A stretch of 39,388 nt of DNA, taken from the NCBI GenBank assembly GCA_046861655.1, contig JBHIAI010000007.1, positions 1-39,388 of the forward strand. The letters are read 5' to 3'. Made by a program: the position numbers. Positions 1 through 12,000 of the stretch are shown in pieces (the first letter of the stretch is position 1; every line of letters begins with the position of its first letter). Source of the stretch: Fidelibacterota bacterium (GTDB taxonomy: Bacteria; Fidelibacterota; Marinisomatia; Marinisomatales; S15-B10).

Positions 1-3000
1 GTCCAGGGGACTGGCTACATCCGGCACCTCCAGATAGGAACACCGTATGACAGATTCGCCACCGCGTTCCTTTCCGGAAGAGAAATGCAGAACCTGGCTC
101 TCGCCAGCCGGCCGGTCACTGTTCTTCCCAAACAGGGTATGCCCATTCCGGGTGGAATCCGGGAGGGCTACGATCAGATCACACATGATTTCTTTTGACT
201 CTCCCCTTTCGCCCTGGAGAAAACATGACCGGCAACTTCACACCGCAAGCTCTTTCATAAAATCCCCCACCTCGTCCATTTCTTCACACGCGTATATCAT
301 GTCCCGAATGCTTTTTCTGCGGTCGGCGGACAGGATCTGGCGAGCCAGAGAATCGAATTTGACCTCCAGATCCTTTTCCGTCATGGGCTCCCGGGGATCT
401 CCCTTGGGATACTCCAGGTACACCGAACGTTCCAGGCCGTCCCTGGTGCGAATCGTTACGCGGGATGGCTGCTTTTCCGGAAAGAGATCCTCGAAATCTT
501 TGCTGGCTTCTCCCTTGATGGTGTGAATGACTTCCTTCAGGCGGGGATCCTCGATTTTCCCCCGCGAAAAACTGGCAGGGGTGATCTCCCGGTCAAGGAG
601 GGCCCGGGCGATACAATAGGGAAGAGAGTGGTCCGCCGTTTCCCGCGTTTCAGGCTGGTACTTCTGGGGATCGAACAGAATATCGCAGGCTCTGGCAATG
701 GTAGTGACCCTCACCTCTTCGATTTCCTCCGGTTTGATGTCGTTTTCCTTCACCAATTTCAGGGTGGCAGACAGGTGGGTATGGGTGAGGGCCTCCGTGG
801 GAAACGCCTTCATGGAACACTCCAGGATCTTGAACGACTCCCCCAGTCCACCCACAAGTTTTTCCTTGTCCCAGTCCGGTCCCAGGACCTCCAGGAGTCC
901 CTCCTTCCCCTCCACAATGGCTTCCGTTCCCGTGTAGCCTTTCTGGGCAAGAAGGGCGGCGACAACGCCTGCCTGGACGGCCATGGGGTCCACCGTGTTC
1001 TTCATCATGGTGAGCCGACCGGCGGTCACCGCACCCGCCGTGTAATTGTGACTGGCACAAATGCCCATAGCATTGACCATCTGGTCCTCCGTCAGGCCCA
1101 GGACTTTACCGGCAACGATGGGGGATACAAACTGGGTCAACGTGGCGTGGTGCCACTTCCGTTCCCGGATGCCGGGAACGGCGAATTCACACAACCTCAT
1201 CTCAAACTCATACCCTAACACAATGGCGACGATCACCTCTTTCATGGAGGCCTTCATCCGTTCCCCCATTGCCAGAGCGGCTGGGATGAGGTCCGAAGGG
1301 TGGCTGGGGTCCTGTTTCCAGTAGATATCATTGTAGTCCAGGGCACGAATCATGAGGGAGTTCAGGAAAGCCCCGTTGGCCGCCGGCATCCTGTCTCCAA
1401 ACCCTATGACGGTCGCCTCGGGTCTGCCTCCCATGTCCATCATGACCTCCCGGACGATGGTCACATCTTCCGTACGGTAGGCTCCATAGGCACACCCCAG
1501 GGAATCGTAAAGAAACCGCTTCACCTCGTGAACGACTTCCTGTGGAAGGTCTTCATACGTCAGCTCCACGCTGAACCGGGCCATGATTCTTGATAAGGAA
1601 TCGGTCATGACGACTTCTCAGAAGTGAGAAACAACGGCTTCTGCAACCTCAAGACTGGTATTGTCCCCTCCCACGTCATAAGTCCTCACTTTTCCTTCCG
1701 CGATGACCTGGGCCACTCCCTTTTCCAGTCTGGCCGCCTTGTCCGTCTCCCCCAACCATTCCAGCATCATCCGTGCAGTCAGGATCATGGCAGTGGGATT
1801 GACCTTATACTGCCCCGCGTATTTCGGTGCCGAACCGTGGGTGGGCTCGAAAACGGCATAGGTATCCCCTATGTTGGCGCTGCAGGCGAATCCCAGTCCC
1901 CCTACCAGCTGGGCAGACAAGTCGGACAGGATATCCCCAAACATGTTCTCGGCCACAAGAATCTCAAAGTCCTGGGGATTTTTCACCAGCCACATGCACT
2001 GGGCGTCGATATTGGTTTCTTTCAGCTCAATATCCGGGTAGTCTTTTGCCACCTCCCTGGCGGTGCGGATCATGAGCCCTCCCGTTTCTCTCAACACGTT
2101 CGGCTTGTCCACCACGGTCACAGTTTTCCGGCCCGTCTTTCTTGCATAATCGAACCCCTGGGTAACGATATTCCTGCAGGCCTGCCGGCTCATGATGCGA
2201 CTGGACAGGGCGACATTCTCCATCCCGAACGCCCGGAACTTCTTCGCCTTGGGATGATGTCTGTCCAGGACGTCGAATACTTCCTGGGGGAGTGGGAAGA
2301 ATTCCACACCGCTGTACAGTCCTTCCGTGTTTTCTCGGAATATTACGATGTCGATGTCGTCCCGGTAATTGAGGGGATTGCCGGCGTACGCCTTGCACGG
2401 TCTTATGTTGGTATGAAGGTTGAATTCCTGTCTGAGCTGCACGATGGGACTGAAATAGACATATCCTTTTCCCCGAAGTTCGGGGTTCAGCTCTTCAGCC
2501 GCTTCCTCTTTCGGCTTGGATGTAATGGCCCCGAACAGAGCGCAGTCTGTTTCCCGCATCAGTGCCTTAGTCCGGTCCGGAAGGGCGTTCCCTTCCGACT
2601 TCCAGAATTCCCATCCGATGTCTCCATCAATGTAGTCTGCGTCAAATTCCAGGGCGTCCAGCACCCGCCGGGCGCATTCCATCACATCATGGCCCACCCC
2701 GTCACCGGGAAGCCAGGCCACTCGATACTTAGCCATACGTCATCTCCACGTGTTCAGAAACTGTGAACGGGTGAAATGATCCCAACCTCGTTCTCAAACT
2801 CCGGAAATCTTTCGCCCAGCGACCTCGAAAACGCCGATTGCAGCCCTTTCCGGTCGCCCTCTGGCAGGTGACGCCCAAGGGCCAATTTCACCAATATGAG
2901 TTTATGGTGCCTCGCCATGACAACACGCAAATCGTGAAAAGAACGGACATCGGGATACAGTTCCATCAAGTCGGTGAGAACCTGTTTGACCTTCTGGGCC

Positions 3001-9000: not shown

Positions 9001-12000
9001 TTTTCCCCTGACAGAAGGGTTTCATTTCCGGCAGGTATTCCTCTTCGATTGTCCGTTTGGCCTTTTTGACCGCCGCCTCAATTCTTGCAGACACCACAAA
9101 GGGAACGGCACCAAAGTCCTCCAGGACCAGTGTCCCCGAATCCACGCCGAGGGCCCGGCACACGGTCTCCGCCTGGACCTTCAAGGCCTTCCCGTACAAG
9201 CGCTCCACCTTACTTTTCACATCGATGGAAAGGGGCTGCCGCGCGAGGTTGTAGGAAACCCTAAGGTCCGACCGGACCCTGTCTCCCCTCGGGCCCACTG
9301 TGAATGTACGAGTCACCTATTTATAGCAGTCCGTGATCGGCAAAGGAAAAATGGGTTTCGCCCGCGATGATGATATGATCGTGAACCACAACGTCCACTG
9401 CATTCATAGCAGCCTTTAGTTTCTCAGTAATCTGAAGATCTTCCTGGGACGGATGGGTGTTTCCCGAGGGATGGTTGTGAACGAATACCACCGCCGCGGC
9501 ATTGTTGGCCAGAGTCCGTTTCACCACCTCCCGCGGGTAAACGGCGGATGTGTTGAGGGTCCCTTCGAACAGTTCCTCAGATGAAAGGATCTGGTTCCGG
9601 CCGTTTAAGAAGACAACCATGAAGACCTCCCGGACCCTGTCCCTGAGACTGACCTTCAGGTAGTCCACTACAGCCTGGGAGGATTTCAGGAATTCTTTTG
9701 CCTCAATCCGCTCCGACAGATAATGGCGGGACAGGTCCCGGACCAGTTTGAGTCCGAACACGTTGTTGGGACCTATCCCCTTGATCTTGCCGAGATCCTC
9801 TGGACTCGCTTCCAGAACCCCTCTTAAGGAACCGAATTTCTCAATGGCCAATTTCGCCGGCGTCTTGCAGTCCTTCCTGGGAGTTCCGAGGGTTAGAAGA
9901 AGTTCCACGATTTCGTAGTCATGGAACCCTGACAATCCCGCCCGGATGAATTTCTCCCGAAGCCTCTGCCGGTGTCCCCGGGCAAGATCGTCATCCGTCA
10001 TGATTCCTCTCCCGTAGGGACTCCCTCTTCGAGAACTCCATCAGTTTAGCTTTGAACTCTCTCAGTTCCCTCACGTTGCCGGGTTCGATTTCACCCGATG
10101 CCCATTTCAGATCGAAATCTTCGGGGGAATCGGCACCTCCTTGCTTCTGATAAAGGGAATAGAGTTCATCGGAACGCCGGGCCTTATTCTTATTGAGCGT
10201 GACCACGATCCTGTAGTTCACATCATCCAGAATATCACCCACAATCCGGGCAGGAACCCTCCTGCGCAACATGACCTGCTCCAGGTTTGACAGGACCCAC
10301 CCACTCATCTGGTAGTCCTCAAAGGCCTCAAAAGCCATGGGTGCAACCTTCTTGACCAGGACCGCCATGGCCTTCGCGTACTCCCTTATCTCGTACTGAG
10401 CGTGGTCATCCATGCGCAGTTTCAAGAAATGGAAGATATTGTGCAGATCGTTCTTCCAGTACCACTGCGTGTACAGATTGACGGGGAGTACGGCTCGAGC
10501 AAGCTCCCGGGCAATGCCCAATTCATTCAGCTCAGAGTACAGGGCAAAACTCTTTTCGGATATTTCCCGGAAATAGCGTACCACTTTATCCGTCAGATCT
10601 TGGGGAACGTCCGACTCCCTGCGTCCCTGTTTGTTGAGCTTACTCTGAAAATGGATGAGCCCTGGGTCAGGGATGTAGAATTCATCCCTGGCTTCAGAGT
10701 AGCGCAGACTGTATTCGTTGATGTTCGCCGTCCTGTGCCGCACCCACTGCCTGGCCACGAAGATGGGCATTTTGGCATGGAACTTCAATTCCACCATTTC
10801 AAACGGAGTGGTGTGCTGGTGGCGCATCAGGTAACGGATCAGACCCCGGTCCTGGGACACCTTCCGGGTCCCCTTCCCATAGCTCACCCGGGCTGCCTGC
10901 ACAATGGCCTCATCCCCACCCATGGTGTCCACCAGCCGGAGGAACCCTTTGTCCAGACACTGGATGGCCCCCTCCGGAATCCGGGGATCGTCAGGCATGG
11001 GGCACTTTGCCCCCGGTCAGGATGTTCAAAGTGGCATTCACAGCCTCCGGGTTTCCCGCGACCAAACCGAAGGGAATCCTCGTCTTCGGGTTGTTGTAAG
11101 TAACGGGTTCCCCCCTCAAACTCACCATGATCCCGCCGGCTTCGGCCACCAGACAGTGACCGCCGCATACGTCCCACTCATTCTTTGGACGAAGAGATGC
11201 GAACACGTCCCCCCTCCCGGCAGCAGTCAGGCCCAGCTTGTAGCTCACGCTTCCCACCGATTTCAGCTTCCGAAAACGGTTCTCAAACTTTCGCCACAAT
11301 CCGTTCCTGGATTCTGTCCGGCTCATCAGGATCTCCATGCCACCTGGATCGGATTGAGAGGAACACCGGATGGGATCTCCGTTCAGAGTGGCACCCTGTC
11401 CTTGGGCCGATGCAAACAGCTCCCCCGTAACCGGATTGAAAAGTACGCCCACGATGGGATGGTGATTCTCCACCAGGGCGACGCTCACCACAAAGTTTGG
11501 GACCCCTTCAATGAATTCCTTGGTGCCATCCAGGGGATCCACCACCCATACCCTCTCCTTGGTCAATCTCTCCCGGGAATCCACGGTTTCTTCGGACAAC
11601 CACCCGTAATCAGGGAACTCTGAGAGGAGAATCTCTTTCAAACGGTCATTGGAGGCGTGATCGGCAGTCGTAACGGGATTCTTTGCTGCCGCCCCTCGCC
11701 GCCGGAGGGTGGGCATCCTGCCCGTGCGGGATTTGTCCAGGACCGCGTAGTCGGACCGGTAATAACGGAGAATGATGTCACCAGCTTTCCTGGCGGCCTC
11801 TGTAGCGATTTTCAATTCCCGTTTCACGACGAAAACTTAAGGGTTGGCAAAGCAAAAGGTGACAGAAATTTCGCCGTGAAAACGGGCTTTACTACCGAAA
11901 TCTCCCTTAACGACTCGTTGAATCGGCCCCCGGGGGATGCTTTTCCGCTTCTCCCCTCATGACGGTGCCCAGGAGGGCAAGGTTTTTCAGAGAGGCCGTG

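Follow-up and report, generated by a model that had tools for sequence, protein, structure and literature searches.

A citrate-lyase-like gene module in Fidelibacterota as a candidate O2-independent route from 2-oxoadipate to 2-oxoglutarate and acetate

Six genes at the start of the analysed window (39,388 nucleotides from a Fidelibacterota genome of 92.8% completeness) may together turn 2-oxoadipate into 2-oxoglutarate and acetate, fixing CO2 and needing no O2. We assign this reading a probability of about one half, and infer its substrates and direction from gene families, residue patterns and co-occurrence. The route looks undescribed. As the initial annotation had described, all six genes lie in one operon on the minus strand; its gene list left out a seventh gene inside the operon, coding for a CDF metal transporter. 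The features are as follows.

238..1608, minus strand: MmgE/PrpD-family gene of a distinct subfamily, proposed (S)-homocitrate dehydratase
1618..2736, minus strand: beta-decarboxylating dehydrogenase gene, homoisocitrate dehydrogenase (HICDH)-like substrate loop and NADP signature
2754..3962, minus strand: CDF metal transporter gene (TIGR01297, 203 bits, cut-off 82)
3932..5926, minus strand: homoaconitase gene, fungal (Lys4)-type, single-chain (TIGR00139)
5969..6502, minus strand: HD-fold protein gene, Met98-Asp99 in place of the His-Asp doublet
6516..8108, minus strand: citF, CitF-type (family II) CoA/ACP transferase, proposed acyl-CoA:homocitrate CoA-transferase
8105..9316, minus strand: citDE, CitD-CitE fusion with an ACP-like domain (about residues 1–95) and a CitE-type C–C lyase, proposed (S)-homocitryl-CoA lyase
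9272..9274, minus strand: Arg15 codon of citDE, aligned with Ser14 of E. coli CitD and Ser25 of MdcC
9321..10001, minus strand: RadC-family gene, directly upstream of citDE and co-oriented

The citF and citDE genes overlap by 4 bases. The CDF transporter, encoded at 25 of 80 loci and at none of the 22 outside the order, is a lineage-specific passenger. The RadC-family gene (22 of 80 loci) does not belong to the module; in part of the order it has been inherited alongside it.

The proposed scheme would be the upper aminoadipate route in reverse, operating on the unnatural enantiomer and on free CoA. Lysine would enter by way of 2-aminoadipate and 2-oxoadipate. The HICDH-like enzyme would reductively carboxylate 2-oxoadipate to homoisocitrate at the expense of NADPH, the Lys4-type homoaconitase would convert this product to cis-homoaconitate, and the PrpD-like enzyme would hydrate the latter by syn addition to (S)-homocitrate. 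With acetyl-CoA or a different acyl-CoA as donor, CitF could then transfer CoA to (S)-homocitrate, and the CitE domain would cleave (S)-homocitryl-CoA to 2-oxoglutarate and acetyl-CoA, for a predicted net conversion of 2-oxoadipate, CO2 and NADPH to 2-oxoglutarate and acetate. The scheme assigns no step to the HD protein. Where both the glyoxylate shunt and HglS are missing, the route may supply a C5 compound for anaplerosis and, next to the glutaryl-CoA branch, act as a sink for electrons. AceA and AceB were not found in this genome, and HglS (PF07063) in none of 165 genomes of the order. In lysine catabolism HglS converts 2-oxoadipate to 2-hydroxyglutarate, requires O2 and gives off CO2. The proposed route likewise would lead from 2-oxoadipate to a C5 acid reaching 2-oxoglutarate, but would do so without O2, fix CO2 and release acetate.

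The homoaconitase and the dehydrogenase point to a C6/C7 substrate. We reproduced the earlier TIGR00139 score of the homoaconitase (916 bits, cut-off 529.9), and its Fe–S cysteine motifs are intact (SCVN at 338, GCGPCIG at 398). The dehydrogenase again found Thermus HICDH as its top solved match, scored below every cut-off, and has the methanogen AksF2 as its top model (343 bits, cut-off 540). Its substrate loop S-P-I-V (residues 96–99), present in all 42 pattern-readable copies of 47, places Ile opposite Asn115, which with Ser113 makes up the substrate residues of NADP-dependent isocitrate dehydrogenase (Icd). The NADP set of Icd (Lys344/Tyr345/Val351/Tyr391) is matched by Lys305, Tyr306, Val312 and Tyr353, and the NADP residues occur in 44 of 44 copies (residue roles from PMC13660168 and PMC5397045). 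Together with the separate canonical Icd of relatives and the adjoining glutaryl-CoA dehydrogenase (see below), the homoaconitase score and the Ile in this loop suggest that the module handles C6/C7 acids. A second Iso_dh enzyme, which the initial annotation had located elsewhere in this genome, is encoded on contig C113; it has no equivalents of R119, R153, Y160, D307 and D311, and we reject it as a working isocitrate dehydrogenase. Canonical Icd is present in a genome of the same genus (G058); the sequence flanking it there matches the end of contig C47 in this genome, so Icd was probably lost in an assembly gap.

The PrpD-like protein carries both MmgE/PrpD domains (PF03972 and PF19305). 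His103, His154, Lys203, Lys267, Glu272 and His327, aligned to E. coli PrpD, are invariant in 29 of 29 sequences. PrpD orthologue models reach 55–83 bits against cut-offs of 458–950, and the structures of IDS epimerase and cis-aconitate decarboxylase are closer than that of PrpD. The initial annotation had this protein perform the homocitrate dehydration that fungal homoaconitase does not catalyse. Such an (R)-homocitrate dehydratase is unlikely because an ordinary aconitase (1097 bits, cut-off 825) is available for the step, and TCA aconitases dehydrate natural homocitrate according to PMC3556520. In the same paper PrpD eliminates water from (2S,3S)-methylcitrate in syn fashion, a reaction beyond aconitases. 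A geometry check showed that Si attack on the 2-oxoacid gives an S product. CitE-family stereochemistry would thus lead to (S)-homocitrate and explain the need for a PrpD-type enzyme, as in the methylcitrate cycle; by this analogy the protein is better explained as a dehydratase for (S)-homocitrate made or cleaved by the CitE-type lyase. In the 2-methylcitrate cycle (PrpC, PrpD, aconitase, PrpB), too, a PrpD-family syn-dehydratase acts on the acyl-CoA-derived arm of an Si adduct ahead of an aconitase-family enzyme that serves the iso-acid (PMC3556520). Unlike that cycle, this genome gave no match to PrpB, and a PrpC query matched citrate synthase only; PrpD orthologue scores fall far under cut-off, and the last enzyme of the module is a beta-decarboxylating dehydrogenase instead of an isocitrate-lyase type.

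The CitE, CitF and CitD homologues are adjacent, and the sub-threshold scores in the initial annotation were confirmed (citF: TIGR01584, 489.1 against 501.45; citE: TIGR01588, 283.1 against 443.4), as was the ACP domain on the fusion (PF06857). In this domain Arg15 aligns with Ser14 of E. coli CitD, the attachment site of the prosthetic group phosphoribosyl-dephospho-CoA. Ser25 of MdcC, the attachment site in that protein (PMC5534430), aligns with the same column (E 0.014). Arg or Lys occupies this column in 58 of 62 neighbours and in 70 of 81 distant fusions; the column that follows is variable in the distant fusions. With the serine replaced throughout the family, the earlier question of how the ACP is primed without CitG falls away. 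CitG was indeed absent: ten reference proteins from four canonical operons, covering CitC, CitG and CitX, which make and attach the prosthetic group, found no match in the genome or the 80 loci. Since the serine is replaced and CitC, CitG and CitX were not found, CitDE probably acts on free CoA, and the CitD domain may have been retained to scaffold the enzyme or to bind CoA non-covalently. PMC3832036 reports that characterised CitE-like enzymes work on free CoA esters, and that CitE-family lyases handle (S)-citramalyl-CoA in reversible reactions. The fusion would share free CoA esters, reversible aldol cleavage and (S) products with such malyl-CoA and (S)-citramalyl-CoA lyases and their partner CoA-transferases (PMC3832036). 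Those lyases stand alone, whereas the fusion has a CitD domain and a CitF-type transferase partner, and it is closer to true CitE than to RipC (283 versus 155 bits).

The module is common to several groups of mostly uncultured bacteria. Its recurrence held up, with all six genes together at 25 of 80 CitF loci, many of which are incomplete. The homoaconitase occurs in 49 of 165 genomes of the order and in 33 of 151 genomes of a class holding an Ignavibacteriaceae genome. Within that class, 30 of these 33 genomes also have CitF, often on a different contig, as against 2 of the 118 that lack the homoaconitase. The same class contains ten genomes with LysX, nine of which carry this homoaconitase. 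Their lysW operons contain no aconitase or Iso_dh gene, and a homocitrate-synthase-like gene lies beside lysX in all ten; in one of them, G224, the aconitase family is limited to two genes and the HMGL-like family to one. The LysW operons thus evidently borrow the module's homoaconitase and bring their own homocitrate synthase. Two of the genomes with LysW operons, G233 and G242, both incomplete, keep homoaconitase and dehydrogenase, and CitF, PrpD and HD genes were not found in them; these losses may be one event. Since every LysX genome has its own synthase and these two have no recognisable lyase half, biosynthesis does not appear to rely on the latter, which favours the cleavage direction. 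The NADP signature is also kept in G233 and G242, where the dehydrogenase must run oxidatively, and it therefore does not fix the direction. The borrowing, the co-occurrence of CitF with homoaconitase and the adjacency of glutaryl-CoA dehydrogenase, which directly follows the PrpD-like gene at 17 of 26 loci, support the earlier proposal that homocitrate links 2-oxoadipate to 2-oxoglutarate and an acetyl unit, with a changed role for PrpD.

With the upper alpha-aminoadipate pathway (homocitrate synthase, aconitase and Lys4, NAD-linked HICDH) the module has in common its homoaconitase, of Lys4 type and scoring above cut-off, and its HICDH-like dehydrogenase, enzymes put to that same use in LysW-bearing Ignavibacteria. 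It differs in its NADP signature, where Thermus HICDH has Asp-Ile, and in its predicted entry or exit through CoA-transferase, lyase and PrpD-like hydratase with (S)-homocitrate. In this genome neither homocitrate synthase nor a lower pathway was recognised: as claimed earlier, it contains no match to PF00682 (nor to an Ignavibacteria synthase used as query), and a LysX query returned weak ATP-grasp matches only. LysW, LysY and LysZ gave no match, and DapA, DapB, DapF, Asd and LysC were not found. As judged from its genes, the genome has neither the full DAP nor the LysW pathway to lysine. Adenylating enzymes gave one match, with a PrpE query only, and no clear Lys2; crude pattern screens for saccharopine dehydrogenase motifs returned unannotated matches. 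On the catabolic side, piperideine-6-carboxylate dehydrogenase is present (767 bits, cut-off 730); the reported lysine aminotransferase gene is there as well, but truncated by a contig end and under cut-off (476 against 520.8).

The same enzymes, with the same (S)-homocitrate and CoA chemistry, could run forward from acetate (via acetyl-CoA) and 2-oxoglutarate to 2-oxoadipate with gain of NADPH. We judge this direction unlikely. A 2-oxoacid oxidoreductase followed by glutaryl-CoA dehydrogenase would then degrade 2-oxoadipate to acetyl-CoA, so that glutamate or 2-oxoglutarate is oxidised in a loop that avoids succinate; otherwise 2-oxoadipate would feed an unrecognised lower lysine pathway. The glutaryl-CoA dehydrogenase linkage is no less compatible with forward than with reverse flux, and extends to 19 of 40 carriers of both genes within 8 kb. 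Among the genes of this genome are four for alpha subunits of 2-oxoacid:ferredoxin oxidoreductases and one for an NADP glutamate dehydrogenase. The lyase reactions are reversible (see above), the LysX genomes evidently use homoaconitase and dehydrogenase in the forward direction, and recognised complete lysine synthesis is lacking here. Several further observations count against the reverse route. Glutaryl-CoA dehydrogenase adjoins the module at none of 22 loci outside the order and occurs in 136 of 165 genomes within it; reductive carboxylation would have to compete with the irreversible glutaryl-CoA sink; and the presence of both synthase and CitF in seven of nine LysX carriers makes a futile cycle possible. 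Lysine aminotransferase is rarer in homoaconitase carriers (31/49) than in non-carriers (104/116); piperideine-6-carboxylate dehydrogenase, whose presence in 41 of 49 carriers favours the reverse route, is also found in 77 of 116 non-carriers. On the other hand, a forward loop would be redundant, as the genome encodes citrate synthase and aconitase (both confirmed), succinate dehydrogenase and succinyl-CoA synthetase. Every LysX genome has a separate synthase, and a lower pathway was not found here.

Alternatively, CitDE-CitF could be an ATP-independent citrate lyase, used to ferment citrate or to run an unconventional reverse TCA cycle, with the other genes aconitase- or IDH-like or unrelated. 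PMC3362086 proposes this function for citF and a citE-citD fusion of Ignavibacterium album (IALB_1146/1147), a pair that resembles ours by description. CitE and CitF score best against citrate lyase subunits, citF a mere 12 bits below cut-off, which counts against homocitrate. A DASS carboxylate transporter lies between citDE and citF at 3 of 80 loci, and aconitate hydratase activity is among the PrpD family names. Sister loci pair CitDE-CitF with other aconitase-family genes, which also weakens the homocitrate reading and suggests a lyase half not bound to one substrate. CitDEF (EC 4.1.3.6) likewise combines a CitE-type lyase, a CitF-type transferase and a CitD-fold domain, here adjacent and overlapping. 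Here, by contrast, CitD is fused to CitE, the attachment serine and CitC, CitG and CitX are missing, both scores are below cut-off, and the companions are homoaconitase, PrpD-like, HICDH-like and HD genes. Since CitF follows the Lys4-type homoaconitase genome-wide, the dehydrogenase lacks the isocitrate-binding Asn, and carriers keep separate citrate synthase, aconitase and Icd, we consider citrate cleavage improbable. Most improbable is another or imported tricarboxylate (methylcitrate-type, a longer chain-elongation homologue, or environmental homocitrate/homoaconitate split both ways): the AksF2 match, the structural neighbours of the PrpD-like protein, the sister modules and transporters inside some loci (DASS, 3/80; CstA, 5/22) fit it, but PrpB and a separate PrpC are missing, most loci lack a carboxylate transporter, and the LysW-operon borrowing and glutaryl-CoA dehydrogenase linkage indicate a C6 oxoacid.

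Returning to the reductive route from 2-oxoadipate, it is conceivable, if slightly against the odds, that it represents a widespread O2-independent, CO2-fixing degradation of lysine or 2-oxoadipate by the upper half of the aminoadipate pathway run backwards via (S)-homocitrate. If so, the module would add an NADPH-linked 2-oxoadipate reductive carboxylase, an (S)-homocitrate hydro-lyase and a homocitryl-CoA lyase with its CoA-transferase, and would define a large citrate-lyase-like family in which the carrier-domain serine was exchanged for a basic residue to use free CoA. Cells with both module and homocitrate synthase would separate synthesis from breakdown through opposite enantiomers.

The HD protein is predicted to adopt an HD fold (model pLDDT 91.6; YhaM Z 16.2, rmsd 2.9 over 158 residues). 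The His of the His-Asp doublet of HD-domain phosphohydrolases is present in 1 of 52 sequences; among the 120 matches listed, this position is Ile in 106, Met in 11, Ala in 2 and unread in 1. The HD gene is missing from G233 and G242, as are PrpD and CitF.

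The first 9.3 kb of the window hold seven co-oriented minus-strand genes that overlap or are separated by 9 to 42 bases, with a GC content equal to that of the genome:

8105-9316, minus strand, citD-citE fusion (CitDE)
6516-8108, minus strand, citF
5969-6502, minus strand, HD-fold gene
3932-5926, minus strand, single-chain homoaconitase (Lys4-type)
2754-3962, minus strand, CDF transporter
1618-2736, minus strand, beta-decarboxylating dehydrogenase
238-1608, minus strand, MmgE/PrpD-family gene

Profile searches reproduced the family scores of the initial annotation, and the six genes which it listed are present, although it left out the CDF transporter. 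The start codon of this transporter gene is probably a GTG near position 3935, overlapping the homoaconitase stop, rather than at 3962, and the gene occupies either of two positions among related operons. A scan for promoters and terminators performed no better than chance. Among the best 80 CitF loci, many of which end early and most of which are labelled Fidelibacterota/Marinimicrobia or unclassified bacteria, we found CitDE in 61, the HD gene in 51, the Lys4-type homoaconitase in 47, the dehydrogenase in 35, PrpD in 31 and the complete six-gene set in 25. The homoaconitase occurs in 49 of 165 genomes of the window's order and in 33 of 151 genomes sampled from the class of the Ignavibacteriaceae genome G165, where the genes are arranged differently and frequently scattered across contigs. 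We conclude that the genes form a genuine pathway module, conserved and so far undescribed, for which a specific mechanism can be proposed. Seven of 22 Ignavibacteria loci (L111, L114-L117, L119, L121) contain a LutABC-like lactate-utilisation (LUD) cluster 5' of HD-homoaconitase-PrpD, and five of the 22 (L105-L107, L118, L122) contain a CstA transporter within the module.

The homoaconitase scored 916 in a profile search with a cut-off of 530, and its Fe-S cysteine motifs are intact. The dehydrogenase scores below all family cut-offs, and its best solved-structure matches are homoisocitrate dehydrogenases (HICDH) from Thermus. It carries Val opposite Arg85 of the Thermus enzyme, an exchange that abolishes isocitrate activity. 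It also carries Ile opposite the Asn which binds isocitrate in isocitrate dehydrogenases (IDHs; excerpt of PMC13660168). The S-P-I-V pattern matched 42 of 47 dehydrogenase copies and missed the other five. The NADP residues Lys344, Tyr345, Val351 and Tyr391, with roles described in portions of PMC5397045 and PMC13660168, are present in 44 of 44 copies; Thermus HICDH has Asp-Ile there. We estimate a probability of about 0.75, both directions taken together, that the module would process C6/C7 substrates by CoA-type chemistry. Context independent of these residues, namely the linkage to glutaryl-CoA dehydrogenase and the co-occurrence in LysW genomes (both below), points the same way.

No other working IDH was seen in the window genome, and the module dehydrogenase might thus be taken for the housekeeping enzyme. 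We reject this assignment because relatives contain a separate Icd, and because the expected flank ends at a contig break: the Icd flank from a genome of the same genus maps onto a contig end in the window genome. Most carriers, i.e., genomes with a Lys4-type homoaconitase, encode a second, separate Iso_dh enzyme, and the three examined share 58-59% identity with E. coli Icd. In two carriers (G021, G023) the module enzyme is the only Iso_dh seen in a check that covered enzymes other than monomeric IDH. The other Iso_dh-fold gene of the window genome (contig C113:7462-8523; L090:5463-6524) is catalytically degenerate, without equivalents of R119, R153, Y160, D307 and D311. Its product retains the KY nucleotide motif and is possibly a pseudoenzyme or regulator; a similarly scoring gene is present in G058, the same-genus genome, and in G057.

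Four canonical CitD proteins have the motif AGTLES(S/G)D, in which the first serine is invariant and is followed by Gly in E. coli. The window CitDE has Arg15 in the column of this serine (Ser14 of E. coli CitD), which we take to be the attachment site of the prosthetic group. In a weak sequence-profile match (E 0.014), this column also aligns with Ser25 of MdcC, the malonate decarboxylase protein whose prosthetic group is that of CitD (excerpt of PMC5534430). The 62 fusions from fetched loci contain Arg (42), Lys (16), Ser (2) or other residues (2) in this column, and 81 distant fusions, the domain-bearing ones among the best 150 representatives at 50% identity, contain Arg (41), Lys (29), Ser (3) or other residues or a gap (8). 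Ser16 can be dismissed as a substitute attachment site since E. coli CitD has Gly in this column and the 81 distant fusions are heterogeneous there (Ser 36, Gly 18, Asn 10, Ala 9). Ten reference proteins for CitC, CitG and CitX found no match in the genome, which is 92.8% complete, or in the 80 loci. CoA esters serve as substrates for citrate lyase subunits in isolation. Of the CitE-like enzymes that do not belong to citrate lyase, those characterised act on free CoA esters (PMC3832036, in part). We infer that CitDE-CitF would form a CoA-dependent complex, in which the basic residue may possibly hold the CoA phosphates at the former position of the covalent arm. Such a complex would also answer the question, left open in the initial annotation, of how the carrier domain is primed without CitG.

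Serine persists at the attachment column in two fusions (L076:8723-12128 and L049:8766-9962), the Aerophobetes one adjoining an intact HD doublet. About ten loci from other phyla (L055-L060, L062, L063, L066, L067) encode CitF with no citDE in the fetched flank. The proteins P0170 and P0229 (927-943 aa) have a C-terminal CitD-CitE part and are possibly CitF-CitD-CitE triple fusions. In three of the 80 loci (L006:1549-2973, L014:8523-9947, L027:8543-9967) a DASS sodium-coupled carboxylate transporter lies between citDE and citF.

As described in parts of PMC3556520, fungal and Thermus homoaconitases interconvert only homoaconitate and homoisocitrate, leaving the homocitrate step to TCA aconitases, and methylcitrate requires a separate syn-dehydratase because aconitases are restricted to trans eliminations. 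The window genome encodes a mitochondrial-type aconitase (1097/825), and natural (R)-homocitrate would therefore need no extra dehydratase. The CitE family is named as a (pro-3S)-lyase, and relatives act on (S)-citramalyl-CoA (excerpt of PMC3832036). According to a geometry check, Si-face addition to 2-oxoglutarate affords (S)-homocitrate, with the same priority order as (3S)-citryl-CoA and C3 of (2S,3S)-methylcitrate; PrpD works on precisely the acyl-CoA-derived arm of such a Si adduct (PMC3556520, in part). By analogy with this family stereochemistry, the homocitrate of the module would have (S) configuration. The PrpD-like protein belongs to a distant subfamily (55-83 bits vs PrpD cut-offs of 458-950) and scores nearer IDS epimerase and cis-aconitate decarboxylase. 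Its residues His103, His154, Lys203, Lys267, Glu272 and His327 are invariant in 29 of 29 sequences and align to E. coli PrpD. Neither PrpB nor a separate PrpC was found in the window genome.

The HD protein has a fold like the HD domain of YhaM (Z 16.2), with the His of the doublet replaced by Ile, Met or Ala; His61, Asp99, His124, His148 and Asp168 are invariant in 50 aligned sequences. Its gene usually precedes the aconitase-family gene directly but disappears along with PrpD and CitF. Solved-structure, atlas, homologue and fold searches for its function yielded the HD fold alone; we would guess at an accessory role, as a hydrolase or isomerase recovering a side product such as a lactone or trans-homoaconitate.

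The lyase half travels with the homoaconitase: among genomes of the G165 class, CitF occurs in 30 of 33 homoaconitase carriers vs 2 of 118 others, given here as counts because kin are not independent and Fisher tests overstate the association. One of the three CitF-less carriers has its homoaconitase at a contig end. Of the two genomes with CitF but no Lys4-type homoaconitase, one (G177) has citDE-citF and an HD gene paired with HacA-like enzymes. Sister modules that combine the citDE-citF family with HacA/LeuC-like genes, with neither a Lys4-type enzyme nor PrpD in the locus (L193 of G177, L052, L071, L076, L028:15933-17735), likely act on other substrates.

Of 26 loci that extend far enough past PrpD, 17 have a decarboxylating glutaryl-CoA dehydrogenase as the next gene, and in 19 of 40 carriers with both it lies less than 8 kb from the module. 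However, 136 of the 165 genomes of the order encode this enzyme, the window genome on contig C110 and unlinked; none adjoins the module in 22 loci outside the order.

The module works as if parts of citrate lyase, the methylcitrate cycle and the upper aminoadipate pathway had been joined, and for each of the three a defining test was negative. The nearest published reading, likened to the module by description rather than by sequence, is that of citF and a citE-citD fusion in Ignavibacterium album as an ATP-independent citrate lyase and possible reverse TCA step (PMC3362086, in part). In the main texts of open-licence PMC and bioRxiv papers, no description of the six-gene set or the reverse route turned up, and term look-ups in portions of PMC9560492, PMC3534657, PMC11237513, PMC11652737, PMC13147460 and PMC2996986 returned no mention of the module. 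If correct, our reading would describe a new central amino-acid route in heterotrophs of sediments, the deep sea and hot springs, and one by which heterotrophs could fix CO2. The annotation of citE-citD fusions with citF as ATP-independent citrate lyase or reverse TCA hint (PMC3362086) would then be corrected, and claims of autotrophy based on these genes would have to be re-examined. The carrier domain without the serine offers a direct test of the interconversion between ACP-bound and CoA-bound lyases, and the bacterial setting of the Lys4-type homoaconitase bears on the origin of the fungal enzyme. An NADP-linked, reversible 2-oxoadipate module with CoA-conserving condensation would be of interest for engineering adipate-type pathways.

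LysX is present in 10 of 151 genomes of the class of G165, and nine of these carry the Lys4-type homoaconitase. All ten have a separate homocitrate-synthase-like gene; in the four scanned, the copy in the lysW operon scored 311-351 bits, below the cut-off of 413. No aconitase or Iso_dh gene lies within the fetched stretch of these operons. The genome G224 contains two aconitase-family genes in total, a TCA-size one and the module homoaconitase, and no LysA match, so that the module enzyme must serve as homoaconitase there. In G233, G242 and G309 this role might in principle fall to a LeuC-like gene. In the synthase-bearing G233 and G242, homoaconitase and dehydrogenase are retained but no CitF, PrpD or HD was found, which is consistent with PrpD belonging to the (S) route. 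No gene for a LysK-type peptidase was seen in the part of the Ignavibacteria lysW operons that was read. Between lysY and lysZ, these operons carry a gene for an EgtC/Ntn-hydrolase-like protein of about 214 aa (L148:9968-10648, counterparts in L147-L156), a candidate non-orthologous LysW-lysine hydrolase.

As to direction, we give roughly even odds to the cleavage route, from 2-oxoadipate to 2-oxoglutarate and acetate. Cleavage is favoured because the LysX genomes all have their own synthase and none depends on the lyase half, because the window genome has no LysW or DAP pathway and encodes piperideine-6-carboxylate dehydrogenase and a contig-cut lysine aminotransferase, because neither the glyoxylate shunt (window genome) nor HglS (0 of 165 genomes of the order) was found, and because of the NADP residues of the dehydrogenase. 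An NADP glutamate dehydrogenase in the window genome could provide NADPH. The same C6/C7, CoA-type chemistry run forward as a condensation appears unlikely to us. It would accord with the same NADP dehydrogenase running forward in G233 and G242, and a glutaryl-CoA dehydrogenase next to the module would be a natural sink for the forward flux. Also against cleavage, lysine aminotransferase, found in 31 of 49 carriers vs 104 of 116 non-carriers, lends no support to a lysine link; piperideine dehydrogenase occurs in 41 of 49 vs 77 of 116; and by our estimate the net reaction should be near equilibrium. A role of the module in lysine biosynthesis is disfavoured by the missing lower pathway in the window genome and by the separate synthase in other genomes.

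With no LysW pathway and no DAP enzymes except LysA, the window genome probably takes up lysine. LysA is no proof of a DAP pathway since DapA/B/F, Asd and LysC had no real match to E. coli queries, which a divergent Asd could escape. The Ignavibacterium album genome also lacks lysC, asd and dapABD (excerpt of PMC3362086). The LysA gene of the window genome (contig C165:10001-11299) adjoins NagB and GlmU-like genes, and its product may decarboxylate scavenged diaminopimelate.
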